Positions 3,629 through 55,104 of a DNA stretch of 64,000 bases are shown here, piece by piece (position 1 is the first letter of the stretch; every line of letters starts with the position of its first letter). A model generated the notes under the pieces. It was not told where the DNA came from and made no database searches. It saw only the letters and a list, made by a program, of their open reading frames with translations. A program made the translations under genes and the position numbers. Source of the stretch: an uncultured Candidatus Saccharibacteria bacterium. GTDB taxonomy: Bacteria; Patescibacteriota; Minisyncoccia; Phycocordibacterales; UBA918. The stretch is from the NCBI GenBank assembly GCA_964643955.1, contig CAZXUO010000004.1, forward strand, positions 3,882 through 67,881, given 5' to 3'.

Positions 3629-4732
3629 CTAACGATTCATCGGCATCACCAGGTACCTGAGTGATTTTTCCGCAACCCCCTCCATCACCATCGGCCGGCC
3701 AACACCCGCAAAACGCAATACGATACTGTCGTCGATAAATGAACCGAGCGGATCATTGAGATAGCGCTGATTGAAACTCAATGCGAGCTCCTCTCCTTCG
3801 ATAGTTGCACTGATACCCTCTTCGGTTTTTCCGAGCTCCCCGTTGTCTGATGAAAAGGTGACGGTATTGCTCTTTGGATCGATAGTTGCGCGCACCTGAA
3901 GAAATGCATTCGTAAAGATGTTTGTCTTTTTGAGTGCGTGCGTGATGTCGCCACGCAATACCGTTGCATTTGTTTTAAATTCTTTTGGAATAATCTGCTG
4001 GTAGTCAGGGAACGACGCTTCAGTGAGTCGTGTTGCCACATAGACTCCCTTTGCAAAACGGAGTGCGAGCTGGTTTTCAGACACGACCATCTGTGGATCT
4101 TCATCTACGAGCTCTATGATCCGTGCAATCTCAAGAGCATTTTTAAACGGCACCAAGAGCGATGTCTCGAGAGTGACTCCCTTTTGTGGTACCACCTTTT
4201 CAATGAGGCGAAATGAGTCAGTTGCGACAAATGTGAGTGAGTGTTCTTTCTGTTGATGAATGAACACACTCCCAAGCTCGGGCTTGATGGATGATTGCGA
4301 CGCAGCAAACGCTGCTGTTTTTATACCAAGCGCAAAGAGTGCGCCGTTGAGTGTTTGTGTATTGCCCGAAAGCTGTTGGATTGCCGGAAACTCTTCTGAC
4401 GGAAGTGTTTTGATTGTTGTTCGAGATTTTCCCGACTCAACCACAAGCATATCTCCCTCTGACTTCAGGGTTACATTGCGATCATTTAAAAGCTGGACCG
4501 TCTGCATCAAGAGCGCTCCCGGCACTGCATGCACTCCCTCGCTTTTTACCACACCCGGAAGAACTACTTCGGCACTTAATTCCAAATTTGTTGCACGGAG
4601 CGTGAGTTGACCTTCGGTGTTTACGCTAAAGAGCACACACTGGAGTACGGGAAGTGTTTGATGCTTCGCACTGATACGTGCGAGTATCTCGAGTGCTTGC
4701 AGTAGTTTCTCCTTTTCAACATTGATGTGCAT
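3629..4732 (-). CDS. dnaN: DNA polymerase III beta subunit (sliding clamp)
   Basis: 367 aa, N-terminal MHINVEKEKLLQALEILARIS..., three-domain clamp architecture; dnaA-dnaN synteny. Confidence 0.9.
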   Translation of the reverse strand: MHINVEKEKLLQALEILARISAKHQTLPVLQCVLFSVNTEGQLTLRATNLELSAEVVLPGVVKSEGVHAVPGALLMQTVQLLNDRNVTLKSEGDMLVVESGKSRTTIKTLPSEEFPAIQQLSGNTQTLNGALFALGIKTAAFAASQSSIKPELGSVFIHQQKEHSLTFVATDSFRLIEKVVPQKGVTLETSLLVPFKNALEIARIIELVDEDPQMVVSENQLALRFAKGVYVATRLTEASFPDYQQIIPKEFKTNATVLRGDITHALKKTNIFTNAFLQVRATIDPKSNTVTFSSDNGELGKTEEGISATIEGEELALSFNQRYLNDPLGSFIDDSIVLRFAGVGRPMVMEGVAEKSLRYLVMPMNR

Positions 4733-4982: not shown

Positions 4983-6377
4983 CTATTTTAAAAGAGCACG
5001 GATCTGCCCAAGCTCGTCTTCGAGCTCAGAGCTTCCCTTCAGATCATTTCTAATCTTTTCGCAGGAGTGAATGACGGTCGTGTGGTCGCGGCCACCGAGC
5101 TTGAGACCGATTGCGGGATACGACACCTGAAAATCTTCACGGAGGATGTACATAATGAGCTGTCGCGGCTTCACGATCTCTTTACGGCGCGTCTTTTCGT
5201 AGATGCTCGCAGGCTCTATTTCATAGAAACGCGCGACTTTATCCACTACATCAGAAACTGCAAGTGATTTTCGAGGACGGGTGCTGTTTTTGATAAGCAG
5301 CTTTACTTCGTCGAGTGAGAGCGTGCGCCCGAGGAGCTGCGACTGACACATGATGGTATTGAGCGCTCCTTCGAGCTCGCGCACGTTTCCCTCAATGGTT
5401 TGCGAGAGGTGTTCAACGACTGCGTCATCAAGCGTGATGCCGTGCTGTGCAGCTTTTGCCTTGAGAATAGCGCTTCGAGACTCAATATCGGGCGCAGGAA
5501 TATCAACGATCATTCCCTGCGCAAAACGTGAGCGGAGGCGCTCTTCCATGTGTGACATGAGGTGCGGCGCGACATCTGATGAAAAGACAATCTGCTTATT
5601 GTTGTCGTGAAGCGCGTTGAAGAGATGAAAAAGTTCTTCCTGCGTCTTCTCTTTATTTGCGAGAAATTGTACGTCGTCCATGATGAGAGCATCGTACTGT
5701 CGATACTTATCTTTAAAGCTGTTGGCGGTACCGTTTTGAAGCGAATTCATGAAGTCTACGGTGAAACGCTCACTCGTAACGTAGAACACTTTGCGTCCGA
5801 GGCGCTTGAGGTGATTTCCTACTGCTTGAATGAGATGCGTCTTGCCATGACCAGTCTTTCCGTAGATGAAAAGCGGGTTGTATGCGATGCCGGGCTTCTC
5901 TGCAACGGTCTTTGCAGCGGTATGTGCGAGCGCATTGAAGGGGCCGACGACAAAGGTGTCGAAAATATACTTTGGATTGAGGTTGTCGCTCTTGTTTATG
6001 TAATATTCCTCAAGTGGAAGTGCAGTATTGACCGTTTGTTGCTGCACTTTTTCGCTGCGCTTATCGTTTCGTGCTACCACTGCATACTCAACACTGCGCA
6101 CGTGCGGAGAAAGGTCACGGAGGGTCTTTAAAATGACGCTATGAAACTTGTCCGCAAGCCAATCCTTAACAAAGACACTCGGGACACCGACGGTCACCGT
6201 ACCGTCTTCAAGCGCCGTGATGTGTGTGTCCTTGAACCACGTCTTGAAGTTTGCGGGAGTGATGGAGAGTTCGATGTGGATAAGCGCGTCATCCCACAAT
6301 TGCTTCACATTGACGTGCTGTGTTTCAAGAGCAGTTGTCGTATGTGAAAGAGGACTCATACCAAAAGTTATAAGCAT
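4983..6377 (-). CDS. dnaA: Chromosomal replication initiator protein DnaA
   Basis: Walker A GKTGHGKTHL, AAA+ domain, C-terminal DnaA signature ...DHTTVIHSCEKI. Confidence 0.95.
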   Translation of the reverse strand: MLITFGMSPLSHTTTALETQHVNVKQLWDDALIHIELSITPANFKTWFKDTHITALEDGTVTVGVPSVFVKDWLADKFHSVILKTLRDLSPHVRSVEYAVVARNDKRSEKVQQQTVNTALPLEEYYINKSDNLNPKYIFDTFVVGPFNALAHTAAKTVAEKPGIAYNPLFIYGKTGHGKTHLIQAVGNHLKRLGRKVFYVTSERFTVDFMNSLQNGTANSFKDKYRQYDALIMDDVQFLANKEKTQEELFHLFNALHDNNKQIVFSSDVAPHLMSHMEERLRSRFAQGMIVDIPAPDIESRSAILKAKAAQHGITLDDAVVEHLSQTIEGNVRELEGALNTIMCQSQLLGRTLSLDEVKLLIKNSTRPRKSLAVSDVVDKVARFYEIEPASIYEKTRRKEIVKPRQLIMYILREDFQVSYPAIGLKLGGRDHTTVIHSCEKIRNDLKGSSELEDELGQIRALLK

Positions 6378-6680
6378 TATACGCCACCGACAGGGGGTGT
6401 AAACTCAGGCGCGTATTCCGCGCGTTTTATACACGTACTGGCGTCAACTGTGTATAACCTGTTGAAAAGTCGATTTCATATATTCCCTCTTAGCGCCGTA
6501 CTGCATATTTTTCGTATCCGTGGGAGCCATTTTCACCATCTTCAATAACAAACGTCGGAACGTACGAAAAATATGCAGTACGGCGCTGAGGCTGTCTTGT
6601 AGAGTGCCTAAGATTTCTAAGTCGCTACACTCCTAGAAATCTATTGAAAAAATAGGAATATAGTGTATTGTGTTGGGACT
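6378..6680. promoter_or_regulatory. Divergent dnaA / rpmH promoter region with two opposed DnaA-box-like sites
   Basis: ttatacacg (6426-6434) and tgtgtataa (6448-6456); also contains repeat copy 2. Confidence 0.4.
6493..6586. repeat. Palindromic intergenic element, copy 2 (perfect 24-bp inverted repeat gcgccgtactgcatatttttcgta ... tacgaaaaatatgcagtacggcgc)
   Basis: Perfect 24-bp IR around a 46-bp core that matches the copy at 143-228. Confidence 0.65.
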
Positions 6681-6818
6681 ATGTCAAAGCGAACCTACCA
6701 GCCGAAGAAGAAAAAGCGGGCTACAACCCACGGTTTTTTGGTCCGTTCGGCTACTCCGTCAGGAGCCAAAATCCTCCGTGCACGACGCCGTAAGGGCCGC
6801 GCAAAGCTCACGGTCTAA
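6681..6818 (+). CDS. rpmH: 50S ribosomal protein L34
   Basis: [45 protein letters not shown]; below ORF-track size cutoff; rpmH-rnpA-yidC synteny. Confidence 0.9.
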
Positions 6819-6820
6819 GT

Positions 6821-6848
6821 AAAAAGCCCCTTTTGAGGGGCTTTTTAC
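6821..6848 (+). terminator. Rho-independent terminator after rpmH
   Basis: aaaaagcccc-tttt-gaggggcttttt. Confidence 0.7.
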
Positions 6849-6890
6849 TATCTTTCCCTCTCATACACCTTTCGCGTATACTCCATATAT

Positions 6891-7223
6891 ATGTTTCCCC
6901 AGGAAGAACGACTCACCCGAAGCCAGTTTGATGAGGCCTTTAAGCGTGGAATACGGGTCCACACGCCCTCGATGCTTTTTGTGTATGTCGAAGGAGGTAG
7001 TCGGAAAGGCGCCGTCGTTGTGTCAAAAAAAGTGGCAAAAAGTGCCGTGGCGCGCAATCGTTTGCGCCGACAGATCTATACGGTCCTCCGGGCATTAGGT
7101 CCTGCCCTCGGCACCAGTATCGTACTTTTGAAGTCAGCCCCCAAGGGCTCTTTTGGTGAACTACTCCTCGAGCTTGAGAGGGCTGCGTCGCGCGCGGTTG
7201 GTATAAGCGCTCGTTCGCGTTAA
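6891..7223 (+). CDS. rnpA: Ribonuclease P protein component
   Basis: 110 aa basic protein, ...KSAVARNRLRRQIY... RnpA motif; synteny. Confidence 0.85.
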   Translation: MFPQEERLTRSQFDEAFKRGIRVHTPSMLFVYVEGGSRKGAVVVSKKVAKSAVARNRLRRQIYTVLRALGPALGTSIVLLKSAPKGSFGELLLELERAASRAVGISARSR

Positions 7224-7224
7224 A

Positions 7225-7983
7225 ATGGCGGGTATGTTTTCATCCATTTGGCACGGGGTTTTCTTTGATCCTATTTACAACGGCCTTATTTTTATCCTCA
7301 ACCACGTACCGGGTGGCGACGTCGGTGTTGCGATCATTATTCTTACCGTCGTTATCAAGCTCCTCCTCCTTCCCCTTTCAGTACGTGCTACGAAAACACA
7401 GCACGCAATGCGTGAGCTCGAGCCAAAGCTCGCGGAGATAAAGGAGAAACACAAAGATGATCGAGAAAAACTCGCGCGCGAGACTATGGGTGCGTATAAA
7501 GAAGCGGGTGTGAACCCTTTTGCAAGTATCTTACTCATCCTCATCCAGCTGCCCGTCATTATTGCGCTCTATCTCTCGGTGTATCGCGGTGGTGGCGTAG
7601 CGCTCCCTGCTATCAATGTAGATCTTCTCTACTCGTTCGTACCAACACCCGAGACAGCGACGATGATGTTTCTTGGGTTTATGGATATTGCCGCACGGAG
7701 CTTCCCGCTCGCCTTTCTTGCGGGTGTGACGCAGTTTTATCACACACGACTTTCACTTCCCCCGCTTGCTCCTAAAGAAAAAGATGCGAAGCCAAGTTTC
7801 AAGGATGATTTCCAACGCAGCATGCAGATGCAGATGCGGTACGTGATGCCGATCATTATTTTCTTTGTGGCGTACACCATCTCAGCAGCGATTGCGCTCT
7901 ACTTCCTTGTGAGCAACCTGATGGCAATTGCGCAGGAGTATTTCATCAAGTGGCATGTGCCAGCACCGGAGAAAAAGGATTAA
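7225..7983 (+). CDS. yidC: Membrane protein insertase YidC/Oxa1 (short form)
   Basis: Polytopic, conserved YidC core (KLLLLPLSVRATKTQHAMRELEPK..., GVNPFASILLILIQLPVIIAL). Confidence 0.85.
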   Translation: MAGMFSSIWHGVFFDPIYNGLIFILNHVPGGDVGVAIIILTVVIKLLLLPLSVRATKTQHAMRELEPKLAEIKEKHKDDREKLARETMGAYKEAGVNPFASILLILIQLPVIIALYLSVYRGGGVALPAINVDLLYSFVPTPETATMMFLGFMDIAARSFPLAFLAGVTQFYHTRLSLPPLAPKEKDAKPSFKDDFQRSMQMQMRYVMPIIIFFVAYTISAAIALYFLVSNLMAIAQEYFIKWHVPAPEKKD

Positions 7984-8004
7984 ATTTAGAGGTAAATAGA
8001 GTAA

Positions 8005-8044
8005 AACAAAAGCCCGCGCACAAGTGCGCGGGCTTTTGTTTATT
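8005..8044. terminator. Bidirectional rho-independent terminator
   Basis: aaaagcccgcgcac-aagt-gcgcgggcttttg between convergent yidC and 8056-9279 gene. Confidence 0.7.
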
Positions 8045-8055
8045 ATGGACAATGA

Positions 8056-9279
8056 CTATTCTTCTCCCTCGGTCTGCTCGACGTCTTCCATAGAATCGGC
8101 GCTCGGCGTAATACTTTGCGGTAATTCCTGAAGCCACAACAGCCCATCACGCTTGTTGGTAAAGATAAGCATCGTGCTCGACGCATTTACATGCATGTCG
8201 AGAATATCAATTATTTCTCCAACGTCTTCGCTCGGTATGCTGATAAGTGCTGCACTTCCAGTATATGCATCTATTTCCCAAACCATATCATCGAGTGACG
8301 CTACTCCTTGATACCATGCATCAGGGTATTCCCCATTTATAGGAACTACAGATGCTCCGCACCAAAGAATATGTTCACGCTCTCTGTCTGCGGCACATTT
8401 CTCAGGGAAAACGGATACGGTAAGAGGTGTACTTGATGTAGCAGCCCCATAAGAGACAAGCGAGCCTTCGCTGGTAAGGAAAGTAGTTACGAACGAGCTT
8501 TTGGTGGGCGTGAGCATAAGACTCGTAACGCCGCCTGCAATTCTTTCAAACTCACTACCACGATATGCGTAACCAGGCACTCGCGCACTCGGTGTCGTAT
8601 ATGCAAGTATCTCTGGTTCCCAAGAAACTGTAATATCGCGGAGAACAGAATTAAAGAGCTCAATACGTGTGTTTGTTTTAAGATCGTATCGATAACCTGT
8701 GCTTCCAGCGGATGTCGGCATCAGGTAGTAAAGAACATCCCCATTCGATCCAAATGCGATGCTGCGTGATGCTCCGGGTAGTTCGGTGCTCGTAACGACC
8801 GTCTCGCCAGCATCATTTTTTTCGAGTGTATTTACAAATACTCGCTGTGTGACAGGAGATTCTTCTGCAGTAATAACAACTCGGTTTCCTTGCGGCGACC
8901 AGAACGCCTCAGTAGTCCGGGGGATGGTTATGTTTACAAGCCTAACGCCAGTTTGGGTGTCTGTATCTACTTCATATATATGTCCAGTTCCACGTTCGAC
9001 ATAACGTACTTTGGTTGTACCGTCTTGTTCAAAAATAATCGAACCGGCGACAGGTGTGGTGCTTATTTTTTTAAGGGCCGTAGATGTTTGTCTTTCTTCC
9101 TGAGTATCCTCCGTCACGTCCACTGGTACAAATTCATTTGACCCACCAAAAGAACCAAACGGATTTGGAATTCCTGAAAGACTTTCCGGTCGCCCATTCA
9201 TGAGGAGATACCACCAGGCTCCCCCTAATATGAGAATGAGGAGTATGATGCTTCCGATTATGATCCAAATTTTTTTCAT
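8056..9279 (-). CDS. Membrane-anchored beta-propeller-like (TolB/PD40-like) hypothetical protein; last gene of T4SS-like cluster
   Basis: N-terminal TM, repeated YRYD/GxxxY beta-strand-like blocks; no catalytic motif recognised. Confidence 0.35.
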   Translation of the reverse strand: MKKIWIIIGSIILLILILGGAWWYLLMNGRPESLSGIPNPFGSFGGSNEFVPVDVTEDTQEERQTSTALKKISTTPVAGSIIFEQDGTTKVRYVERGTGHIYEVDTDTQTGVRLVNITIPRTTEAFWSPQGNRVVITAEESPVTQRVFVNTLEKNDAGETVVTSTELPGASRSIAFGSNGDVLYYLMPTSAGSTGYRYDLKTNTRIELFNSVLRDITVSWEPEILAYTTPSARVPGYAYRGSEFERIAGGVTSLMLTPTKSSFVTTFLTSEGSLVSYGAATSSTPLTVSVFPEKCAADREREHILWCGASVVPINGEYPDAWYQGVASLDDMVWEIDAYTGSAALISIPSEDVGEIIDILDMHVNASSTMLIFTNKRDGLLWLQELPQSITPSADSMEDVEQTEGEE

Positions 9280-9282
9280 TTG

Positions 9283-10143
9283 TTAATTATTGTACCTAAT
9301 ACAATAGGCGTTTGTACCAATTATGGCTCCGCCGAACTCGTCCCTGATCATTTCTGTTTGTGGAATACCACCAGGCTTTGCTCGACATTCAGTCATGAAA
9401 TAGATGATGTCACTTTGTGGACCTCTTCCTATTGTTGCATTAGGTGCGTGAGTATATTGTCGTGAATCGAGAAGAGTTGTGGGAGCGGCTAGTTTTTCCT
9501 GGAAGGCCGCAGCCTCTTCTTGTGTCGGTTGGGTAATCGTCACCGGATCAGGTCTGGGATTTAAGAGGTCACCAGGACGCTGCTGTGTACTTGTCTCCAC
9601 CACCACCGCCGGCTCCGCAACGCTCTGCAGGGGCGACATTCTTTGCAGGATATCTAGGTTTAAAATATTTCTATTAATGGTCTGCAGTACCACGACTGTT
9701 GAGAGTATGATGAGAAGTCCTAGAAGTGAATTCTGTATATCCTTTTTGGCCTCTTCCTTTGAAAAAACCACATCAGATGACATGTATTTGACACCTGCCA
9801 CGATGATCTTTACAACAGCAATTAACGCCCCAATACCAACAGCGAGCCTGAATAGTACATTTATGTATTCAGGAAGTGTCCTGTTTGCACCATCGAGTCC
9901 CGGAAGATTGACGAGGGGTGTGTACACACCCTTTGCAGCTGGACCTTGCGCTGTATTACTGACAGTCGCTGGCTTGTTTTGGTTGACGTTATTACCCGGC
10001 ACAGTACTTTCGGGTGCTGTGTTCCCTATCGTTCCTTCAGGTCCCATGGGAATATATTCGTTTTCCTGGGCGTGGACAGCTCCGAAGAAAATCAAAAAAA
10101 TGAAGAGTGGACTAAATATTTTTACAAATGATGCTTTAGACAT
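9283..10143 (-). CDS. Pilin-like secreted protein, paralog A (signal peptide, Pro/Asn-rich linker, two hydrophobic helices, variable C-terminal domain)
   Basis: First 165 aa identical to 11303-12145 product; VirB2/TrbC-like hairpin of two hydrophobic helices (LFRLAVGIGALIAVVKIIVAGV / LLGLLIILSTVVVLQTI). Confidence 0.4.
   Translation of the reverse strand: MSKASFVKIFSPLFIFLIFFGAVHAQENEYIPMGPEGTIGNTAPESTVPGNNVNQNKPATVSNTAQGPAAKGVYTPLVNLPGLDGANRTLPEYINVLFRLAVGIGALIAVVKIIVAGVKYMSSDVVFSKEEAKKDIQNSLLGLLIILSTVVVLQTINRNILNLDILQRMSPLQSVAEPAVVVETSTQQRPGDLLNPRPDPVTITQPTQEEAAAFQEKLAAPTTLLDSRQYTHAPNATIGRGPQSDIIYFMTECRAKPGGIPQTEMIRDEFGGAIIGTNAYCIRYNN
9598..10077. repeat. 480-bp direct repeat, copy 1 (identical to 11597-12076)
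   Basis: Apparently 100% nucleotide identity over 5' halves of the two pilin-like genes. Confidence 0.8.
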
Positions 10144-10145
10144 AT

Positions 10146-11192
10146 CTAGTTAAAATGAATGGTGAACCTGCTTGTTGCAGATTGTAGGAGGGACTTAAGG
10201 TTCCGTATAGAGAAATCAATTTGTGTTGACCCAGTTGACCCAGACCTCCTTAGGGTGATTGTTTGGGGATCGTCATTTAGATTTTCAGCGGGCACCCCGT
10301 TTATATTCCATCCATATTGCGCGTTTTCAAATATACTTTTTGACATAAAGTACGGTTCAGCTCGAACACTTATTTCCTCACTGAGGAGCGTGATGTCTGA
10401 CGGTAGTGCATTTCTCGATAGCCCATGGAGAGGATTCTCTTCGTAAAAAATAATCCGAGGTTCTCTTGGAGTTATCTGTAAATAACCTGTATGTCGCGCA
10501 AGTCCGTCCGATGTTTCTGCTGTTAGTTCCACCAATGGTGTATCTGAGCGAGGCATGGTTGTAGTAAGTACGTTCATTCCGACGCCGGATTTAACAACTT
10601 GTGAGTTTATTTTCCAAGTGTAAATAAGGTTTTGTGTGCGAGCCACAGCACCGTTTGAGGTATAGATTGAAGGAAACGCAATGAGTCGAATGGTGCCGCC
10701 AGGACTCGGGAGGGAGCGTCCTCTGTAGAAATTAGGTATTTGTGTTTCACTTTCAACAATAATATCTATTGCACTTGGAATAATTGTCCGAGAAACGGTA
10801 TGGGCTAGACCACTTTGTTCGACTACTCGCACACTAATCTGAAGCGGGGTCCCAAGAGTCGGCGCGGTGAGAGATATTTCTTGCTGTCCAGCGTACTCAG
10901 AGACAGGTGTTCCATCAATGCTCCAAGTAATAGTCGCTCTATTTATGTCATAGGCATACGCTTCAACGCGCGCGACGAAGGGTCGTAACGCCTGTGGTGT
11001 TTCTGGGTTTGTAGTGAGGATTGTTTCACCGCCAGGAATTCCGATCTGTGCCGAGGCAACTGCGGTTGTTCCTATAAAAAAAAGAATCGTAGCAAGTAAG
11101 ACAAAAAATGAACGTATCCAATACACTCTCGATTTGACAGTATGCATACTATTTGAGCTTATTGTATCTTCAACAAATGTTTTTGTCCTCAT
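10146..11192 (-). CDS. Secreted hypothetical protein with Ig-like/beta-sandwich repeats (alternative start 11147)
   Basis: Signal peptide (MHTVKSRVYWIRSFFVLLATILFFIGTTAVASAQ), repetitive beta-rich sequence; lies between the two pilin-like paralogs. Confidence 0.4.
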   Translation of the reverse strand: MRTKTFVEDTISSNSMHTVKSRVYWIRSFFVLLATILFFIGTTAVASAQIGIPGGETILTTNPETPQALRPFVARVEAYAYDINRATITWSIDGTPVSEYAGQQEISLTAPTLGTPLQISVRVVEQSGLAHTVSRTIIPSAIDIIVESETQIPNFYRGRSLPSPGGTIRLIAFPSIYTSNGAVARTQNLIYTWKINSQVVKSGVGMNVLTTTMPRSDTPLVELTAETSDGLARHTGYLQITPREPRIIFYEENPLHGLSRNALPSDITLLSEEISVRAEPYFMSKSIFENAQYGWNINGVPAENLNDDPQTITLRRSGSTGSTQIDFSIRNLKSLLQSATSRFTIHFN

Positions 11193-11302
11193 TGGTTGTC
11201 CTCATAGTTAGCTCCTCGCTCTAGGTAAGTATTATATTTAGTCGTTATATACGTAGATTCGTCGTAAAAAGCATAAATGCCCCCTGCTTGATATCAAGCC
11301 GT

Positions 11303-12145
11303 TTAGGGGTTGAGACCGAGAATCTCTGCACAGCCTGCCTTTAAGGGAGGAGGATTTTTGACAAGATAGTTTGGAATTTCACACTGCATGACAGATCCAT
11401 CAGTTGTTTGTCGTGAGTGCATGGTTCCACCCTTACAAGAGCACTCAGCTCGCTTGTCACGAATGACGGCTGTCTGTCCTGAAGTTGATCCAGAAAGGCC
11501 ACCTGAAAAATCAATGGTGACCCCAGAGGAGGAGGCCATTCTTTGAAGATCTTCGTTTGGGGGCACGTCTACGAAGATTGCTGTCGGCGCCGGTTCCACC
11601 ACCACCGCCGGCTCCGCAACGCTCTGCAGGGGCGACATTCTTTGCAGGATATCTAGGTTTAAAATATTTCTATTAATGGTCTGCAGTACCACGACTGTTG
11701 AGAGTATGATGAGAAGTCCTAGAAGTGAATTCTGTATATCCTTTTTGGCCTCTTCCTTTGAAAAAACCACATCAGATGACATGTATTTGACACCTGCCAC
11801 GATGATCTTTACAACAGCAATTAACGCCCCAATACCAACAGCGAGCCTGAATAGTACATTTATGTATTCAGGAAGTGTCCTGTTTGCACCATCGAGTCCC
11901 GGAAGATTGACGAGGGGTGTGTACACACCCTTTGCAGCTGGACCTTGCGCTGTATTACTGACAGTCGCTGGCTTGTTTTGGTTGACGTTATTACCCGGCA
12001 CAGTACTTTCGGGTGCTGTGTTCCCTATCGTTCCTTCAGGTCCCATGGGAATATATTCGTTTTCCTGGGCGTGGATGGTATTGAATGGAATAAGTAGTGA
12101 AAAAAGAATACCCACTGCAGTAAAAAATTTATAAAGATCTAACAT
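11303..12145 (-). CDS. Pilin-like secreted protein, paralog B (Cys-rich variable C-terminal domain)
   Basis: Same N-terminal module as paralog A, different about 100-aa C-terminus (CSC...C...C); hairpin plus T tract downstream (11250-11300). Confidence 0.4.
   Translation of the reverse strand: MLDLYKFFTAVGILFSLLIPFNTIHAQENEYIPMGPEGTIGNTAPESTVPGNNVNQNKPATVSNTAQGPAAKGVYTPLVNLPGLDGANRTLPEYINVLFRLAVGIGALIAVVKIIVAGVKYMSSDVVFSKEEAKKDIQNSLLGLLIILSTVVVLQTINRNILNLDILQRMSPLQSVAEPAVVVEPAPTAIFVDVPPNEDLQRMASSSGVTIDFSGGLSGSTSGQTAVIRDKRAECSCKGGTMHSRQTTDGSVMQCEIPNYLVKNPPPLKAGCAEILGLNP
11597..12076. repeat. 480-bp direct repeat, copy 2
   Basis: See 9598-10077. Confidence 0.8.
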
Positions 12146-12154: not shown

Positions 12155-12643
12155 TCAATCAGAGCGTATGATTCTGCGTCGGAGGCGCATGGTATTTGTA
12201 GGCATACTTTCTTCGCGTTTCTTTTTTTCTTCGGCATCCTCACGCCTGACAATATAAATTTGGACGATGGTCCAGATAGTTATTCCAGGGAGCACATTCA
12301 GAAAGGGCATAAAATCAACAAGGAGCGCAATGAAACTCGTCGTTACTTTTCTTAGCACATATTCCCCCTTCATGAAGGAAACTCCTGAGAGGAGAAACCA
12401 TAAAATGAGGGTGAGGTAGCCCATCCCGATAATAGCCCACGAAAGGACGCTCTGTGTTGCTGTGGCTAAAAACATAAGTGCTGCAGCTGCAAGTCCGCCA
12501 AAAAAAGGGATCCATGATGCAAAAAAGCCCACAACTGACGCCATGAGCAATATAATTCCAGTCGCGAATTGTGCCAGATCAAACCCCAGGGCGATCACAA
12601 TCATGAGAGCAGCCTTTGTTTTGGAGATCCTCTCTTCTCTCAT
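12155..12643 (-). CDS. Small polytopic membrane protein (4 predicted TM) downstream of VirB4
   Basis: Hydrophobic profile; start overlaps the VirB4 stop by 4 nt. Confidence 0.35.
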   Translation of the reverse strand: MREERISKTKAALMIVIALGFDLAQFATGIILLMASVVGFFASWIPFFGGLAAAALMFLATATQSVLSWAIIGMGYLTLILWFLLSGVSFMKGEYVLRKVTTSFIALLVDFMPFLNVLPGITIWTIVQIYIVRREDAEEKKKREESMPTNTMRLRRRIIRSD

Positions 12644-14466
12644 TGTGTGCGATTTAATTCATCCATATCCCTTCGCTCCTTCTTGATCTGGAGAAGTTGG
12701 GATGGATCGGAGGTGATGATTTGGTCTTCGGTGTACGAGGCAATGATTTTAATCGCGACATGCTTAAGCCCTGCAAAGAAGATTCCCTCCCCTACGCCCG
12801 ACTCGAGCAGTAAGAACTTCTCTTCATCAGTGAGATTGAAGGTTTCTTGTACGCGATCGATCGAGGTCGGCGACTGCTTCATGAGGAGTTGGATCGAGGA
12901 GTTCGTCAGCATCGGTACGCCGTATGGAGAGCGGAGGAAGTCGTCGACGTCTTGAGTAATAGTCGAGAGACCGAGATAGTATTTGCGTCCGCGTTTTGCA
13001 ATACCATAGAGGAATGAAGCAGTATCTTCTGATTTCATCATCCACCACGCTTCGTCGATGACGAGGAGGCGCTTCTTGAGTGTGCGACGGATCGCGCTCC
13101 AAATGAAGTGTGTAATGATGTACATCGCGACCGTCTTGAGCTCGTCCTCCATGTCACGAAGCGAAAATACAACAAACTTTTGTTCGATGTCGACATTGGT
13201 CGCTTGGTTCATGAAGCCTGCCCACGTACCCTTTGTGTACTTCGTGAGACGCTGTACAAGTGACTCACTTCCCTCCATACCAGCGAGCACCATCTCAAAA
13301 TCAGAAAGAAGTGGTGGTTCGAGGCTCGAGAAGTCGCTGTCGCCCGTGATGTCTTTGAGTGCGTATGTCTCAGTAATAGCGCGGTCGATGATGGCGTCTT
13401 CTTCAGGTGTGAGCCCTGAAAGCATGATGCGGAAAAGACCGACGAGCGAAATGATGTGTGAGCGAAGGATGTCTTGCGGTGACTCGTCCTGCTGAGGTTT
13501 CGGAAGATCGAACGGATTGATGTGGTGGTTTGATGAGAGAGAAATATTGAAAAAGCGTCCACCGGTCGCTTCGGCAAGATATTCGTATTCTCGTTCAGGG
13601 TCGATGACGATGACTTCTGCACCAAACATGAGTGAGCGAAGAATCTCGAGTTTTGCAGCGTACGACTTACCCGAACCAGAAGTGGCAAAGGTTACGGAGT
13701 TGTAGTTCTCGAGCGAGAAGCGATCAAAGAGAATGAGCGAGGAATTGTGGCGATTGATGCCGTAGAGGATGCCGGTGTCTGCGGTGAGGTCAAATGAAGT
13801 GAATGGGAAGAAGCTCGAAAGCGGTGATGAATTGAGCTTGGTGTGCACCTCGAGTAAGTCGGTTGCAATCGGCATGACGCTTTTGAAGCCTTGTTCTTGT
13901 TGGAAAAGTGCAGGTTTGAGATACACGAGACGTGCGTCGAGCACCGCCTTGATCTCCCCTATCGTCTTTTCGATATCATCGTCAGTGTTTCCGTAGATTG
14001 CAAAATAGAGACCCACATTGAAGAGACGTTCCTCTGCTTGTTGGAGCTTGTCGCGAAGCTCCTCAAGGTTTCTATACGCAGCGTCGAGCTGTGGGTCGCG
14101 CACGAAGCCTTTTTCTGCGCGGACATTAATCTGGCTCTGCACTTCGGCAACCTTCTTTTGGAATTTCTTTAGAACCTCCGCCGTGTCCATAGGGTGGACG
14201 ACGATCGAGACATCAAATACCCGTTCGAGGTTGAGGATCGGCTCGAGCCAGCCGTCGTTGAGGTATCGCGGGAACGAAATTGCAAAGAAGGTACGTACGA
14301 GCTTTCCGCTCAAATTGATTTCTTGTGGCGTGATACCGACTGCCGATGGTGCAATCACGTCTTCAAGCGACATTACGCTCGCGTTTTCAATGTCGCGCGG
14401 AAGCACTGAAGAAAGGATGTTTTCTTCTTCAGGCTCTTTCTTTTTTATAAAATCAAATATTCCCAT
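12640..14466 (-). CDS. virB4: VirB4/TrbE/CagE-type T4SS ATPase (C-terminal 608 aa including ATPase domain)
   Basis: Walker A TSGSGKSYAAK, Walker B LLVIDEAWWMM, conserved VirB4 blocks (FFxxSFPRYL, IITQD). Confidence 0.8.
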   Translation of the reverse strand: MGIFDFIKKKEPEEENILSSVLPRDIENASVMSLEDVIAPSAVGITPQEINLSGKLVRTFFAISFPRYLNDGWLEPILNLERVFDVSIVVHPMDTAEVLKKFQKKVAEVQSQINVRAEKGFVRDPQLDAAYRNLEELRDKLQQAEERLFNVGLYFAIYGNTDDDIEKTIGEIKAVLDARLVYLKPALFQQEQGFKSVMPIATDLLEVHTKLNSSPLSSFFPFTSFDLTADTGILYGINRHNSSLILFDRFSLENYNSVTFATSGSGKSYAAKLEILRSLMFGAEVIVIDPEREYEYLAEATGGRFFNISLSSNHHINPFDLPKPQQDESPQDILRSHIISLVGLFRIMLSGLTPEEDAIIDRAITETYALKDITGDSDFSSLEPPLLSDFEMVLAGMEGSESLVQRLTKYTKGTWAGFMNQATNVDIEQKFVVFSLRDMEDELKTVAMYIITHFIWSAIRRTLKKRLLVIDEAWWMMKSEDTASFLYGIAKRGRKYYLGLSTITQDVDDFLRSPYGVPMLTNSSIQLLMKQSPTSIDRVQETFNLTDEEKFLLLESGVGEGIFFAGLKHVAIKIIASYTEDQIITSDPSQLLQIKKERRDMDELNRTQ

Positions 14467-14468
14467 AG

Positions 14469-15110
14469 TTATACCGGCAATGCCTTGTTACTTTCTGCAG
14501 GGTTGAAGAGGTGATAAAAGAGCTCGATTATTTCGTTGGTGCCGAGGGTGACAGTGCGTACGCCGATGCGGCTAAGTCCTTGCGTAACGACCGCAACGCG
14601 CTGCTCGATCTGAGTGCGGTCTTCATCGAAGCGTGCAAGTGATTCGGTATCTGCCTCGGAAGATGATTTTGTTCGGAAGACGTTTCCGAGTCCGCTAATT
14701 CCCCCACTGAGATTGAGTGTTGAGGGTGTGTATGAAATCACGACAAAGAAACTTTTTGTCATAATTTCGACTTCATTGGTGAGGTTCTCGACAAAGCCAA
14801 TGTATTCACGGAGCTGGACGCGCATGAGGTCATTGTCTTGTGCAGGCTCTCGCTCTCGAAGTAGTGCGAGGTACGGCTGGATATTGAGCCGGCGCGACTG
14901 CACATATATTTGGAGTGAAAAATCGAGTGTGTTGAGGAATGATTGAAATTGCGCAAGGATCGCATGCTGTTCGTCCTGTGATTTAAGCGCGAAGTTGATT
15001 GACGAAACCATGAGTATTGCGCGCATACTGCCATCTTTCAAGATTGCGATATCATCGCGGATCTCCTTTAGTGGTACAAACTCTTGTGCTGCTGGTGTGC
15101 TGCGTGCCAT
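14469..15110 (-). CDS. VirB4 N-terminal domain encoded as separate ORF (split gene or frameshift)
   Basis: PLKEIRDDIAILKDGSMRAILMVSSINFALKSQDEQ pattern typical of the N-terminus of monoderm VirB4/TcpF-like ATPases; stop TAA, 2 nt, then ATG of 12640-14466; combined 821 aa with Walker A near 470. Confidence 0.5.
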   Translation of the reverse strand: MARSTPAAQEFVPLKEIRDDIAILKDGSMRAILMVSSINFALKSQDEQHAILAQFQSFLNTLDFSLQIYVQSRRLNIQPYLALLREREPAQDNDLMRVQLREYIGFVENLTNEVEIMTKSFFVVISYTPSTLNLSGGISGLGNVFRTKSSSEADTESLARFDEDRTQIEQRVAVVTQGLSRIGVRTVTLGTNEIIELFYHLFNPAESNKALPV

Positions 15111-15113: not shown

Positions 15114-15512
15114 TTATTTGTCTTTTTTTAGCGCGTTGAGTTCCAACTTTCGTGACAGCGAGGCGATGTTGTTTGAGGTTGGTGGTGTGTAGAGTGGCGT
15201 ACTACCGGCATACGAAGAAGTTACTGGCTTTTTATCAGTTTTTTTCCAGAGATAAAGTCGTGTTGAGCTAATGTAGCGGATCGCTGATTCAACAAAGACC
15301 GAAAGTGGCCGGTTGTTTACGGGGAAAAATGCAAGACCAGCAGCAAGAGCCATAATAGGCCCGGCAATAACCAAAAAAAGCAAGAACGGCAAGAGTATAT
15401 ACAGCATCACCCCAGCTCCTGCTCCACCTGCGAGGTAGATAAATTGCTTCCACGTAAAGGGACCGAAGATTTTGTCCTCCACTTCAATAAATTGTGGTAC
15501 TTCAAAACGCAT
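15114..15512 (-). CDS. PrgI-family (VirB3-like) small membrane protein
   Basis: MRFEVPQFIEVEDKIFGPFTWKQFIYLAGG... matches PrgI N-terminal motif, two TM helices, immediately upstream of VirB4. Confidence 0.55.
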   Translation of the reverse strand: MRFEVPQFIEVEDKIFGPFTWKQFIYLAGGAGAGVMLYILLPFLLFLVIAGPIMALAAGLAFFPVNNRPLSVFVESAIRYISSTRLYLWKKTDKKPVTSSYAGSTPLYTPPTSNNIASLSRKLELNALKKDK

Positions 15513-16140: not shown

Positions 16141-18171
16141 TTAATCCTCAGAGTCCTTCTTCCTCGCTTCTTTTAGTGCCGCAAGGAGGCTCTCCTCGCG
16201 CTTTTCTTCGGGTGTTTTCTTTCGGTCTTTCTCAATTGCTTCTGCCGCTGCGGCATTTTCTGCTTTCGTTTGTCGCAAGAAGCTTGGCGAGAATGAACCG
16301 CCGCGCTTCAATACCTCCGCATAATTTCTTTGACGCTCACCTTTGACCTTAGCGACTTCAGTTGCACGCTCAGTGAGTAGGCGCTTCTTCTCTTCTTCTC
16401 GCTCGTTTATTTCAACATTATGTTCAGCTTCAACTTGCTCGACCTGTAATTTCTGTGCATCTGCCTGTGCGCGGTATGCAGCACGCTCTCCCTCAGTAAG
16501 GCTTCTATCACCAGCCTGTCTCAAGAGATTTGAAAGTGTTTGTTTTTCTCGTGTCACCGCTTGAGTTTTTGCACGCTGGCGCACTTTAATATCTGCTTCG
16601 AGATTTTCTATCTGCTCTTTATGGAGCACCTCGGCTTTCTTAACTGCCTCTGTATCTTGACCAAGTGATTTTGCAAACTCAGTTTCCTGCTTAATGATAT
16701 CTTTTTGACGCTGCTCGTAGCCTCCCTTCTGAGGTTTTCCAAGATCGAGGCCGCTGAGTTTGGCGAGACCTGTTTTATCGAGCGTGGCGCGTACATCAAA
16801 ACTACTTTTAGCGACATAGCGGCTGCTCTTTAGAGCTGCTTTTGCTGCAAGGCCGCGCACGCCACCTTTGCTGGCAGCGTTATTGAGTGCTTCCGAATTA
16901 TTCGTGATATTTCCCAAGCGCCCAATAGTGTTTCTGCCGAGCGCCCCAACGGTTCCCGCTGCAAGGCGCGCGCCCATGCGAGTTGAAAAGTTGGCACCAT
17001 ATGCTCCCATTTGTTTTGCGACAATAAGTGATGCGACCATGAGGACTATAGTGAGACAAAAGAATGCAGCAGTAGTAAATCCTTTTTGTGCACCATTACC
17101 TACGAAGACCCCATCAAAATTTTGCGTTGCTGCGGTGTAGCCCTCAGCCACTTTCATGGTGAGGTAGAGCATGAAGAAAAGTGCAGGCGCAAAGAAAGCT
17201 TGTTCGAAAAGCGTCTTCCACCACTTTTTTGACCAGCTTTCAAGTGCAGGGAATACGCTTGCAGCAAATGCAATAGGAGAAAGCATCATAATAATGAGGA
17301 GTACCCCGAAGCGTATTGCTATAAGTAATGCAGCTGCAGCAAATACAAACGAAGCTGCGATCACGAATATCGCAATCCCAATAACAAATGGAATCATTGC
17401 GTCCCCGTCCGTGTTCCAACCGCCGACTTTCTTAACCATCGAATCTTTATGATTCGGATCAGGAACGGCAATGAGTCTAATGAGGCCCATTTGCGCCATG
17501 AAGGCTTCTCCGGCGTTAAGACCAGCGAGATTGGTCCCTTGGGCATTTTCGCCGATGCCCATATTATTATAAATTTGGATTGCTGTGACATTTGAGACAT
17601 CGATGACAACCTTTGAAATAAAGAGACTGAAATTGACAAGGAGTGCCCCCATAATTATCGATGTGAGCATTTTTTTGGTATCACTCCCGACATTTAAAAT
17701 AGTTCTGAAACCTACGTATACAAGACCGAATATAAATGTAAGATTGACCAGGTCGCGCACAATACTCCATATAAGATCAACACTTTGAGCAAGAGGGCCT
17801 TGTATCCAATAGCCCATTCCGAGGATGAAGTGTTCGATCGCTGCATTAAATAGGCTAACGGTAATATAGAGAACGTAGCCGACGATACCGATAATAAGTC
17901 CACTAATGCTCCATGATGGAATTATTTCCATTTTTTCGCCGGTTGAGCTCCGAGTTGCTGCGCCTAAAGCGGGATCATTTTTGACTTGCTCTAGCGTGAC
18001 TGCGCTTCCTATATCACCTCGTCCTTGGTTTATACCGATTGGGGAATAGTCAGGAGCCTCACCTGGATCGGGTTGTTGCGCGCGCACTACCAGAGGAGAG
18101 AATAAGGCGAATATTCCTGATATTAAAAGTATCAGGAGAGGTGCACTTATTTTAATAAAAGTGTTATTCAT
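16141..18171 (-). CDS. VirB6/TrbL-like polytopic membrane protein with C-terminal charged coiled-coil extension
   Basis: Signal peptide plus at least 6 TM segments and a long K/E-rich C-terminal tail; position in T4SS-like cluster. Confidence 0.45.
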   Translation of the reverse strand: MNNTFIKISAPLLILLISGIFALFSPLVVRAQQPDPGEAPDYSPIGINQGRGDIGSAVTLEQVKNDPALGAATRSSTGEKMEIIPSWSISGLIIGIVGYVLYITVSLFNAAIEHFILGMGYWIQGPLAQSVDLIWSIVRDLVNLTFIFGLVYVGFRTILNVGSDTKKMLTSIIMGALLVNFSLFISKVVIDVSNVTAIQIYNNMGIGENAQGTNLAGLNAGEAFMAQMGLIRLIAVPDPNHKDSMVKKVGGWNTDGDAMIPFVIGIAIFVIAASFVFAAAALLIAIRFGVLLIIMMLSPIAFAASVFPALESWSKKWWKTLFEQAFFAPALFFMLYLTMKVAEGYTAATQNFDGVFVGNGAQKGFTTAAFFCLTIVLMVASLIVAKQMGAYGANFSTRMGARLAAGTVGALGRNTIGRLGNITNNSEALNNAASKGGVRGLAAKAALKSSRYVAKSSFDVRATLDKTGLAKLSGLDLGKPQKGGYEQRQKDIIKQETEFAKSLGQDTEAVKKAEVLHKEQIENLEADIKVRQRAKTQAVTREKQTLSNLLRQAGDRSLTEGERAAYRAQADAQKLQVEQVEAEHNVEINEREEEKKRLLTERATEVAKVKGERQRNYAEVLKRGGSFSPSFLRQTKAENAAAAEAIEKDRKKTPEEKREESLLAALKEARKKDSED

Positions 18172-20626: not shown

Positions 20627-21424
20627 TTATGAAAGTTCACGTGCGAGTGCGCACCATGTGTCGATAGAAAGATCCTCCCCACGCGCTTTTGGTGAGATGG
20701 AAAGTTTTTCAAATGTTTGTTCGAGGCGACTTTTTTCGCAGATCGTTGAAAGATTCCCGAACAACTGCTTTCGGCGAGCAGCAAATCCTGCGTGCAGCAC
20801 GGTAAAGAACCATTCTTCGGTAAAACCATTAAAACGGCCGCGAGAAATATCAGAAATTGCGAGAATTGCCGAATCGACAGCCGGCGGCGGCGCGAAATTG
20901 CCTCGAGAAACAGTATCTACGTACCGCGGTGTACCAAATACCTTGACGGAGAGAGACAAAAGCGACTCTTTTTCGCTTCGAGCCACCCGGAGCGCGACCT
21001 CTTTTTGGACAAGGAAAACCACGCATTGGGGCTGATGCACGGCACTGAGTGACGTCCGGATGAGCATCCCTGAAAGGTAGTATGGAATGTTGGCAACAAT
21101 AGAATAATCCTTATATTGAGCCATAAAATCGGTGATATCGCGGTCGCGTACGTCGGTGTGGTGGAGTATAAGCCGTCCATCGGCAATCTCCTTTTCAAAG
21201 CGCTCATTAAGCACCTCGATCGCACGAAGGTCAGCCTCAAGCGCCACTACCTGCGCTCCTGCCGCAAGGAGTGCCTCGGTAAGGGCGCCGGTCCCTGGCC
21301 CAACTTCAAGCACGATATCCCCTTTTTTGAGGTTGGCTGCCTCCACAATCTTCAAAACGACCTTTGGATTGGTCAAAAAGTGCTGTCCGAGCGATTTTTT
21401 GGCTTCAATGCTGTGTTTTTTCAT
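20627..21424 (-). CDS. rsmA: 16S rRNA (adenine1518/1519-N6)-dimethyltransferase RsmA/KsgA
   Basis: LGQHFLTNPKVVLKIVEAANLKKGDIVLEVGPGTGALT SAM-binding motif. Confidence 0.9.
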   Translation of the reverse strand: MKKHSIEAKKSLGQHFLTNPKVVLKIVEAANLKKGDIVLEVGPGTGALTEALLAAGAQVVALEADLRAIEVLNERFEKEIADGRLILHHTDVRDRDITDFMAQYKDYSIVANIPYYLSGMLIRTSLSAVHQPQCVVFLVQKEVALRVARSEKESLLSLSVKVFGTPRYVDTVSRGNFAPPPAVDSAILAISDISRGRFNGFTEEWFFTVLHAGFAARRKQLFGNLSTICEKSRLEQTFEKLSISPKARGEDLSIDTWCALARELS

Positions 21425-53349: not shown

Positions 53350-55104
53350 GTGGTGCGCATTCAAGATGCACAACTGAAGCGGTTTGTCATTGATGCGGGT
53401 CTCGTGACTCGCAAGGACATTGATGCGGCTGAAGAAGCTGCAAAGGAAAGTGGTAAGTCACTTGCCGATACGCTCGTCAACAACGGCTCGCTCACTGAAG
53501 ATGATTTGCGCCGCATCGAGTCGTACATTCTCGGCATCCCCTTTATTTCTTTGAAGGACAAGAAGATTGATTTTGATACGCTCGCACTCATCCCTGAGCC
53601 AATTGCGCGTAATCACAACATTATCGCGTTCAAAAAAAGTGCGGATTCTCTCGAGGTCGCCATGCTCGATACCGCCGATCTTTCTGCGATCGACTTTATG
53701 AAGAAGAAGCTTGGTCTCAAGATTCTTCCGCGCCTCACCGACACTGAGTCGATGAAGTCTGCACTCCGTCAGTATCAGAAGACATTGAAGGATGAGTTTG
53801 GTGATCTCATCATCAAAGAATCAGCAGCATTGAAGCTCGTCGATGATGAGAAGGGAGACAACATGTCGAAGGAAGAGCTTGAGAAGATGGCAGAAGATTT
53901 GCCGGTGGTGCGCATCGTCGATACGCTTTTGCGTCACGCGATCATTCAGGGAGCGTCTGACATTCACGTAGAGCCGATGGAAGAAGAGGTGCTCATCAGG
54001 TACCGCATCGACGGCATGCTCCGCGATGCGATGACGCTCCCCAAGCATGCGGCGCCGACGCTTGTTGCGCGCATCAAAGTGCTTTCAAATCTCAAGCTCG
54101 ATGAGAAGCGCTTGCCGCAAGACGGTCGCTTTAAGATGGAGATGGACGGACAAAAAGTTTCGTTTCGTGTGTCGGTGCTTCCGGTCTACAACGGCGAGAA
54201 GATTGTGATGCGTCTCCTTCGCGAGGGTCGCGCAGGGTACACGCTTGAGGGCATTGGTTTTCATGGCGATGGGCTCGAGCGTATCCACGACGCGATGAAC
54301 AAGACAACGGGTATTGTGCTCGTCACCGGTCCGACAGGCTCGGGTAAGACGACGACACTCTACACAATCCTCGATCTCATGAACACGCCCGAGGTCAACA
54401 TCTCGACGATTGAAGATCCGATTGAGTATCAGATTCCGCGCATCAACCAGACGCAGGTGCGTCCGGATATCGGTTTCTCATTTGCAAACGGTTTGCGATC
54501 GCTCATGCGCCAAGACCCTGACATCATCATGGTCGGTGAGATCCGCGACGGAGAGACGGCGTCGCTTGCGATCAACGCGGCGCTTACGGGTCACTCAGTG
54601 CTTGCGACTGTGCACACCAACTCCGCATCAGCGACCGTCGCACGACTCGTCGACATGGGCGTTGAGCCATTCTTGCTTGTGTCGACGCTCTCGGTCGCGA
54701 TCGGCCAGCGTCTCGTACGTAAGCTTTGTGAAAATAAAGAATCATACACGCTCTCCGCAGCAGAGCGTGAAGATCTCGAGAAGCGACTCGATCTCGATCT
54801 CGTACTCAAAGTTTTGAAAGAAGAAAAGAAAGTTCCTGCTGACGCGACGTGGAGCACGGTGCCGTTTTATCGGCCGGTACCAAACGCCGAGTGTGAAGAT
54901 GGATACAAAGGCCGTCTCGGTATTCATGAAATCTTGCCACTCTCTCCCGCAATCAAGGAGATAGTGATCAAGAGCGGTACTGCAGACGACATTGAGAAGC
55001 AGGCGCGCAAGGAGGGGATGATGACAATGATGGAGGACGGTATTTATAAGGCAGCCCTCGGAATAACAACGATCGAGGAAGTGCTGCGTGTTGTATCAGA
55101 ATAA
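53350..55104 (+). CDS. pilB: Type IV pilus assembly ATPase PilB/GspE
   Basis: N-terminal GSPII_E_N domain, Walker A GPTGSGKTTTL, Asp/His boxes, tetracysteine-like C-terminal region. Confidence 0.9.
   Translation: MVRIQDAQLKRFVIDAGLVTRKDIDAAEEAAKESGKSLADTLVNNGSLTEDDLRRIESYILGIPFISLKDKKIDFDTLALIPEPIARNHNIIAFKKSADSLEVAMLDTADLSAIDFMKKKLGLKILPRLTDTESMKSALRQYQKTLKDEFGDLIIKESAALKLVDDEKGDNMSKEELEKMAEDLPVVRIVDTLLRHAIIQGASDIHVEPMEEEVLIRYRIDGMLRDAMTLPKHAAPTLVARIKVLSNLKLDEKRLPQDGRFKMEMDGQKVSFRVSVLPVYNGEKIVMRLLREGRAGYTLEGIGFHGDGLERIHDAMNKTTGIVLVTGPTGSGKTTTLYTILDLMNTPEVNISTIEDPIEYQIPRINQTQVRPDIGFSFANGLRSLMRQDPDIIMVGEIRDGETASLAINAALTGHSVLATVHTNSASATVARLVDMGVEPFLLVSTLSVAIGQRLVRKLCENKESYTLSAAEREDLEKRLDLDLVLKVLKEEKKVPADATWSTVPFYRPVPNAECEDGYKGRLGIHEILPLSPAIKEIVIKSGTADDIEKQARKEGMMTMMEDGIYKAALGITTIEEVLRVVSE

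Follow-up and report, generated by a model that had tools for sequence, protein, structure and literature searches.

Why are two genes of one operon identical to the last nucleotide through their middle and different at both ends? The question is raised by a 64,000-nt stretch of DNA (hereafter the window) from an uncultured Candidatus Saccharibacteria bacterium (GCA_964643955.1, contig CAZXUO010000004.1, positions 3,882 to 67,881), in which a first-pass annotation had drawn attention to a pair of pilin-like genes on either side of a gene for a secreted protein. We call the two genes pilin A and pilin B. The explanation that we consider probable is that A and B are VirB2-like pilin paralogues of a chromosomal type IV secretion system (T4SS), that gene conversion holds their core identical and that the two proteins display differing outer heads. 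The features on which the argument turns are as follows.

9283..10143, minus strand: pilin A gene, a complete open reading frame (ORF) of 286 aa, recognised by a PF18895 score of 31.0 bits, by synteny and by a hairpin in its AlphaFold2 (AF2) model
11303..12145, minus strand: pilin B gene, a complete ORF of 280 aa, recognised by a PF18895 score of 31.8 bits and by operon position
9596..10076, minus strand: repeat copy 1, 481 bp, encoding residues 23-182/183 of pilin A
11595..12075, minus strand: repeat copy 2, 481 bp, encoding residues 24-183 of pilin B
9286..9594, minus strand: C-terminal domain (head) of A, 103 aa with 2 Cys, modelled by AF2 at a predicted local distance difference test (pLDDT) score of ~90 over residues 200-286
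11306..11593, minus strand: C-terminal domain (head) of B, 96 aa with 5 Cys, modelled by AF2 with a helix at 224-237 and a beta-hairpin at 241-256

Two pilin genes and their shared block

Exact alignment of the two genes returned a direct repeat of 481 bp at an offset of 1999, in which window positions 9596-10076 and 11595-12075 are 100% identical, with 0 mismatches. This bore out the module of about 480 identical base pairs described in the first-pass annotation, whose coordinates were 1-2 nt off. The 60-mers flanking the repeat matched at 14/60 and 23/60 positions, which is the random level, and chance is excluded as the origin of a 481-bp repeat. A blastn search found no third copy in the 64-kb window.

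The block is not the 5' end of either gene. Identity begins within the codon of position -3 of the (V/I)-H-A↓Q cleavage site (...GAVHA↓QENEY in A and ...NTIHA↓QENEY in B), after 22-23 codons for the n- and h-regions of the signal peptide that differ between the genes. Because identity starts only at the -3 codon, the signal peptides lie outside the shared block, and the earlier description of a 5' module that encodes a signal peptide had to be corrected on both counts. Copy 2 opens with the last three signal-peptide residues, runs through a linker rich in Pro, Asn and Thr, and closes with two membrane helices, their KYMSSD...KEEAKKDI loop and ~24 residues past helix 2. The first 158 residues of mature A and B (linker, two-helix hairpin and short stalk) are identical. 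Over their whole lengths the two proteins are 69-71% identical, with 100% identity over 160 aa, a mosaic that is hidden by whole-protein identity statistics. Each protein has a Sec signal peptide of its own, and the two signal peptides are unrelated.

Both proteins score above the curated gathering cut-off of the Pfam family PF18895 (T4SS_pilin), at 31.0 and 31.8 bits against 26.6 bits. AF2 models helical hairpins at residues 90-122 and 126-156 of A and 91-123 and 127-157 of B (pLDDT 80-88); the two hydrophobic helices follow the signal peptide and are joined by a short charged, Lys-rich loop. This inter-helix loop is the most conserved part of the pilin core, and in known conjugative pili the corresponding loop lines the lumen. 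A search of PDB sequences with the core profile retrieved chance matches only (AcrB and MexB). Judged by PF18895, the hairpin and the T4SS cluster setting, A and B are VirB2-like T4SS pilins; the label 'pilin-like' is apt for a pilin of type IV secretion, and does not extend to a type IV pilus pilin. Canonical VirB2, TrbC and TraA pilins are small mature proteins, essentially a hairpin without a C-terminal globular domain. Mature A and B measure ~255-261 aa, of which the linker takes up 60 aa and the C-terminal domain 96-103 aa, and are not small hairpin-only pilins of this kind. From the positive-inside rule and the analogy with VirB2/TraA we infer that the N-terminal linker and the C-terminal head would lie outside the membrane and the inter-helix loop inside.

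Synteny places pilin A in the ancestral pilin slot, between the genes for a 348-aa and a 407-aa protein. Pilin B, placed between the gene for a 162-aa membrane protein and the 348-aa gene, is a lineage-specific extra copy.

Probable concerted evolution of the pilin core

We compared the window with 52 related loci from a species-representative genome collection. Two pilins were detectable in 6 of the 52 loci, a count that covers pairs found with the core profile and would miss very divergent pilin paralogues. In all six the paired cores (301-379 nt) are 98.4-100% identical. The shared tracts in these six genomes start slightly past the signal peptide and end 12-24 residues past helix 2, and in all seven genomes, the window included, the tract is sharply bounded, with flanks that match at the random level (13-30/60). 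The seven assemblies with this mosaic come from different projects, and several have 1-6 mismatches between the copies.

The sister species L034 and L035 share one arrangement, and their orthologues are ~80% identical throughout, core included. Within each genome the paralogous cores are ~100% identical, whereas the C-termini group by orthology; by its sequence signature this pattern is concerted evolution. Relatives keep the order VirB4 - (membrane protein) - 348-aa homologue - pilin - 407-aa homologue, to which the second pilin is added upstream of the 348-aa gene (the window), in tandem (L010 and L023) or after the 407-aa gene (L034, L035, L052 and L054). Three distinct positions of the second pilin imply that it was gained on no fewer than three occasions, and homogenised cores are found at each of the three. 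A metagenome scan for close relatives of the core retrieved only loci of <=54% identity, each with a single pilin.

Related strains of the same species bear directly on the repeat. An independent 2.8-kb contig, L001 (GCA_020049755.1), repeats the gene order of the window (B, then the 348-aa gene, then most of A) and differs from the window at 25 positions. Its copy A has 10 sites that differ from the window and its copy B has 3, while the two L001 copies differ from one another at 9 sites and have in common two derived changes, at window sites 9994/11993 and 10003/12002. L078 has the A allele at 9727/11726 in its copy A, and L001 has it in its copy B. All pilin differences in L001 are synonymous except one (N28D in A). 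Since nucleotides vary freely at synonymous sites between strains, a nucleotide-level cause of the identity, whether RNA structure or an antisense ORF, was ruled out.

From the L001 copies, the allele found in different copies, the six two-pilin loci and the comparison of L034 with L035, we strongly infer that the block is kept identical by recurrent intragenomic gene conversion, as the first-pass annotation had proposed for its shared module. Homologous recombination between copies 2 kb apart would repeatedly homogenise the core, and a conversion tract would stop where homology stops; because the flanks have no homology, the tract cannot extend into them. Selection would hold the two heads different, and differing signal peptides would be tolerated.

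Two side observations concern exchange between strains. In L001 and a further strain contig, L079 (GCA_018061545.1), seven synonymous differences from the window are clustered within 19 nt of copy A only (window 9652-9670); the cluster has the look of a small segment brought in from a diverged allele, and a donor was not found. Against window positions 5200-9550, L079 is a mosaic in which dnaA is ~97% identical, rnpA, yidC and the 3' end of the 407-aa gene are 74-95% identical, and identity is 98-100% from 8199 on. The sharp breakpoint within the 407-aa gene suggests recombination between strains at the locus.

The identity of A and B could instead be a matter of youth, if a segmental duplication or a domain shuffle had happened once and very recently, without ongoing homogenisation, either by one copying of the A core into an existing secreted-protein gene or by replacement of the ends of B. 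Such an event would fit a block that is 100% identical over 481 bp, the non-ancestral position of B as an extra copy and the species-restricted, orphan C-terminus of B. Yet the arrangement is already present in the diverged L001, whose copies have 9 differences and still share 2 derived changes; one allele is common to different copies across strains; the same mosaic occurs in 6 other genomes; and the duplication in L034 and L035 is older than ~20% nucleotide divergence, with cores that are still identical. We consider a single recent duplication unlikely. It explains the pattern as a whole poorly, but may account for the last homogenisation event in the window. Two identical copies might also be produced in assembly, if strain variants were mis-joined through the segment that they share or if polishing to a consensus erased their differences. 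The contig derives from a metagenome, short-read assemblies of relatives break within the repeat (the L079 contig begins inside copy A), and a hybrid Logan contig, L002, may reflect graph mis-threading at the repeat, a genuine junction being also possible. An artefact is nevertheless very improbable, given that a single L001 contig runs through B, the 348-aa gene and A and that its two copies can be told apart, that L078 spans copy A together with both of its unique flanks, and that the mosaic recurs, several times with copy mismatches, in the seven assemblies from different projects.

L002 (Logan SRR31968662_374641) also bears on the view that the repeats form a programmed or frequent rearrangement switch, with recombination between them giving hybrid genes, deletion or amplification of the intervening gene and a heterogeneous population, as in phase or antigenic variation. 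Its 959 nt correspond to window 11208-11594, the repeat and 10077-10167, and its product, P0002, joins the A signal peptide and the core to the B head; flanked by the 348-aa gene's 3' end and its upstream region, the junction is that expected from an excised circle or a tandem duplication. On the other side, L002 is the sole contig of this kind, is short and derives from a k-mer graph assembly, a method prone to mis-threading at repeats of low coverage. Once mature, the hybrid protein would equal mature B, so nothing new would be displayed, and a deletion product would lose a gene that is conserved in 48/52 loci. Silent cassettes are absent from the 64-kb window, and the operon ORFs that were scanned include no visible recombinase gene. 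We regard a switch as quite improbable and the unexplained L002 junction as most likely a mis-join. Deletion of 10146-11192 through the repeats, as the first-pass annotation envisaged, is mechanistically possible, but the gene is kept in 48/52 loci and the only odd junction, that in L002, is the reciprocal product and not a deletion. Its further suggestion of cassette exchange or antigenic variation found no support, since tblastn and blastn searches with the core and both C-termini found only the two genes in 64 kb, both genes are complete and lie tightly packed in one operon with their own signal peptides, and homology is present on one side only of each variable part.

Two more specific mechanisms were rejected. 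Silent-cassette antigenic variation of the pilE/pilS type was dismissed because the 64-kb window holds no promoterless or truncated donor cassettes. A diversity-generating retroelement target was dismissed because the window copies are identical, the 9 differences in L001 are not adenine-specific and the repeat lies in the conserved core, not at the variable end; no reverse transcriptase was found among the ORFs scanned.

Variable heads, the operon and the anchor alternative

AF2 models head A as a beta-alpha-beta-alpha-beta-beta fold with Cys253 and Cys281 (pLDDT ~90), while the helix and beta-hairpin of head B are modelled at pLDDT 72-89. One of the two domains had been noted as Cys-rich; with five cysteines against two in head A, this is head B. 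No sequence similarity between the two heads was detectable, and neither head has a Pfam match or a structural neighbour in the PDB. Head A is conserved in one orthologue, P0003. A full HMMER search of 1.84 billion representative proteins found no homologue of head B except itself; a second match, to a low-complexity eukaryote-like repeat protein, was dismissed as spurious. Neither window head carries a hydrolase signature.

In a 40-sequence family alignment, two cysteine columns are nearly invariant (C253 and C281 in A; C235 and C255 in B), with '...TECRAKPGG...AYCIRY' of A aligned to '...AECSCKGG...MQCEIP' of B, and both AF2 models terminate in helix(Cys)-GG-beta-hairpin(Cys). The alignment and the models suggest that heads A and B share this terminal module, which a disulfide bond across the conserved cysteine pair might close. 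The view of the C-terminal domains as unrelated thus stands for detectable sequence similarity and gives way for the common module. Our best guess is that the window heads bind the cell wall or a host surface.

C-terminal extensions of at least 60 aa (60-414 aa) are carried by ~47 of 55 related pilins; ~8 are bare, without a head. Recognisable heads include SLT lytic transglycosylases (L034A, L052A and L054A), VanY/M15 peptidases (L010B, L034B and L052B), an NlpC/P60 domain (L026) and a YkuD domain (L041), all predicted from their domain matches to be peptidoglycan-active. Two-pilin genomes often combine an SLT head with a VanY head. The pilins of this T4SS therefore appear to be usually two-part proteins, with a conserved VirB2-like core and a variable, putatively extracellular head that is often a predicted peptidoglycan hydrolase. 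In architecture, with a constant handle and a C-terminal head that varies, the likeness to polymorphic effector or adhesin systems drawn in the first-pass annotation is apt.

The co-occurring sister lineages L070 and L074 are ~85% identical over the operon and ~87% over the pilin core at the nucleotide level, whereas their pilin signal peptides have diverged much faster, to 55-65% identity, and the C-terminal ~320 nt cannot be aligned. Because the C-termini are unalignable while the core is ~87% identical, the head has been replaced even at an orthologous locus. The second pilin of L052 (L052:12217-13830) has an extra N-terminal domain of ~245 aa before the core and VanY after it, so the pilin core can be internal in a three-part protein. 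The two largest head families (L007-like, 12 loci, and L013-like, 10 loci) have no Pfam match but contain His/Asp motifs reminiscent of LAS/M15 metallopeptidases, and may be unrecognised cell-wall hydrolase families.

The other features of the operon are listed below.

8004..8041, minus strand: strong intrinsic-terminator-like hairpin with a 17-bp stem, at the operon end
8056..9279, minus strand: 407-aa membrane-anchored protein, last gene of the operon, with homologues downstream of the pilin in 50 related loci
10146..11192, minus strand: 348-aa secreted or membrane-anchored protein (the intervening gene), with an N-terminal signal/transmembrane (TM) segment
12155..12643, minus strand: 162-aa polytopic membrane protein between VirB4 and pilin B, with homologues at the equivalent position in 6 loci
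12640..15110, minus strand: VirB4-type ATPase in two ORFs, 14469-15110 for the N-terminal part and 12640-14466 for the P-loop part
15114..15512, minus strand: PrgI/VirB3-like protein (PF12666, 40.5 bits)
16141..18171, minus strand: VirB6/TrbL-like polytopic channel protein (PF04610, E = 8e-5, just under the curated cut-off), conserved in 34 loci

On the minus strand the operon reads VirB6/TrbL, PrgI/VirB3, the two VirB4 ORFs, the 162-aa gene, pilin B, the 348-aa gene, pilin A, the 407-aa gene and the hairpin. It is flanked by dnaN (3629-4732), dnaA (4983-6377), an rnpA-like gene (6891-7223), yidC (7225-7983) and ksgA (20627-21424), and is the origin-proximal chromosomal T4SS of Patescibacteria, as presented by Quinonero-Coronel et al. 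2025 (PMC12102498). The signal/TM segment of the 348-aa protein agrees with its earlier annotation as secreted; its homologues stand immediately upstream of the pilin in 48/52 related loci, and it has a weak match, below threshold, to BiPBP_C (Ig-like) of Pfam. VirB4 matches TraG P-loop, AAA_10, DUF87 and, weakly, TraC_F_IV. Its split into 213-aa N-terminal and 608-aa P-loop parts is kept in 41/52 related loci, and this conservation marks it as genuine in the clade rather than the result of a frameshift. A scan of 30 of the ORFs, several of them without a Pfam match, turned up neither a relaxase nor a coupling protein.

The closest relatives in the genome collection are Kaiserbacteria- and Paceibacteria-type metagenome-assembled genomes (VirB4 87% identical in amino acids), and a near-identical strain carries the label 'Candidatus Pacebacteria bacterium'. 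A separate type IV pilus locus starts at 53350-58090, with a PilB-like T2SSE/MshEN ATPase (53350-55104) followed by large ORFs; the window holds both surface machineries discussed for epibiotic Patescibacteria, the T4SS and the type IV pilus.

In the gene-conversion explanation, the core would be the part that the machine handles, in membrane insertion, in extraction by VirB4/VirB6 and in subunit packing, a step of which we are less confident. Identical cores would allow both proteins to enter the same filament or channel-proximal assembly interchangeably, with the result that two different heads would be shown together on the cell surface. A single structure would then bear a glycosidase together with a peptidase in relatives, and in the window perhaps two binding modules.

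Gene conversion is also compatible with a serious functional alternative, a hairpin that does not polymerise and serves as a membrane anchor or docking module, holding extracytoplasmic domains at the T4SS channel in the manner of PrgK and TraG, the membrane-anchored VirB1-type hydrolases of Gram-positive conjugation systems. The domains fused in relatives (SLT, VanY, NlpC/P60 and YkuD) have the activities of two-domain Gram-positive VirB1 analogues, large heads on all subunits would be awkward in a VirB2-type filament, and the Patescibacteria T4SS is related to monoderm systems without a pilus (PMC12102498). Such an anchor is possible, if on balance doubtful: the core matches the T4SS_pilin profile and, in L034, weakly that of TrbC/VirB2, conservation of the core is highest in the loop that faces the lumen in conjugative pili, and ~8 of 55 relatives are bare, headless pilins. 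VirB2-like pilin arrays are, moreover, essential in a cultivated Saccharibacterium and are discussed for it as pilus subunits (PMC10633639, PMC12857230).

Several points weigh against the explanation that we favour, VirB2-like pilins with converted cores and displayed heads. In the window, an assembler or polisher may have homogenised differences at a few sites such as those in L001. For the window lineage taken by itself, 100% identity could reflect a single very recent event. A helical filament of the VirB2 type may have no room for a head of 100-280 aa on each subunit, and we know of no organism in which pilus formation by PF18895 proteins has been demonstrated. The lack of Pfam matches and PDB neighbours for the window heads, and of homologues for head B, counts on the same side.

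Known systems and the meaning of the pattern

The closest published likeness is to the VirB2 arrays of the Patescibacteria T4SS, which lie in the same origin-proximal operon with VirB4, PrgI/VirB3, VirB6 and PF18895 pilins (PMC12102498; Wang et al. 2023, PMC10633639). Members of those arrays are reported to be highly divergent, with a mean of 25% and a maximum of 54% amino acid identity (PMC12102498), in contrast to the window pair at 69-71% overall and 100% over 160 residues and 481 nt. Neither segmental gene conversion nor globular or enzymatic C-terminal pilin domains are mentioned in the VirB2-array passages searched.

Several variants of T4SS pilus components are also found in the Bartonella Trw system, with its tandem copies of trwL/VirB2 and trwJ/VirB5 (Nystedt et al. 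2008, cited in PMC2610397). These copies are described as co-expressed and surface-exposed, as products of duplication, recombination-driven concerted evolution and diversification, and as thought to broaden host-surface binding (PMC2610397). Trw differs in its Gram-negative, host-erythrocyte setting and in the amplification of whole small genes without appended domains of ~100 aa or enzyme fusions. In Anaplasma phagocytophilum and A. marginale, 8-15 virB2 paralogues share a conserved signal peptide and two-helix scaffold, and vary mostly close to the N-terminus of the mature protein and to the C-terminus (PMC3556328). There the variable parts are short hypervariable stretches and not whole domains, and identical nucleotide tracts between paralogues are not reported for them. 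The membrane-anchored hydrolases PrgK (pCF10) and TraG (pIP501) of Gram-positive conjugative T4SSs combine a glycosidase with a peptidase, as the paired heads in relatives often do (PMC12102498); in the relatives, by contrast, the anchor is a VirB2-like hairpin and not a single TM helix, and each activity has a gene of its own, the anchor being identical in both.

Outside the T4SS the comparison is with architecture and mechanism. Specialised type VI secretion system components and polymorphic toxins (VgrG/Hcp/PAAR fusions, CdiA-CT and Rhs) combine a conserved delivery module with a swappable C-terminal domain. The pilins resemble them in a conserved N-terminal module whose C-termini are replaced between near-identical lineages, and differ in the secretion machine, in having no immunity gene after the variable part and in that no toxin domains were identified. 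A toxin-immunity reading was rejected, the downstream genes being those for the conserved 348-aa and 407-aa operon proteins. In Neisseria pilE/pilS, conversion from promoterless silent cassettes diversifies the expressed gene. Gene conversion between pilin-related sequences is common to both cases, but pilins A and B are of another class, their genes are both complete and co-oriented, the effect on their conserved part is homogenisation, and no silent copies were found in the window.

The literature passages searched make no mention of three points: the nucleotide-identical, domain-bounded cores, the C-terminal globular domain on most Paceibacteria-type T4SS pilins in this sample, with peptidoglycan-active enzymes as its recognisable forms, and the head swaps between close lineages. 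The T4SS itself and its pilin arrays were already known (PMC12102498, PMC10633639, PMC12857230). The locus is a clean natural example of domain-bounded concerted evolution, and represents a repeat class that breaks short-read assemblies of such genomes.

The Patescibacteria T4SS is widespread, essential in the one cultivated species tested and without an assigned function (PMC11665869, PMC12857230). The pattern reported here offers a testable hypothesis on what this T4SS places on the cell surface. Extended to Paceibacteria-type Patescibacteria at large, the pilin core might be a universal, interchangeable handle by which polymorphic heads (cell-wall enzymes that cut glycan or peptide, or small domains for binding) are exported on a T4SS filament, with conversion keeping the handles compatible; we offer this speculatively and think it somewhat unlikely as it stands. 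If it were true, the T4SS would carry an enzymatically armed pilus that attaches to and breaches the host cell wall, and heads would diversify and swap between lineages while conversion keeps the handles of one genome compatible. Both points would be new for T4SS biology and would suggest a role for the essential T4SS of Patescibacteria.

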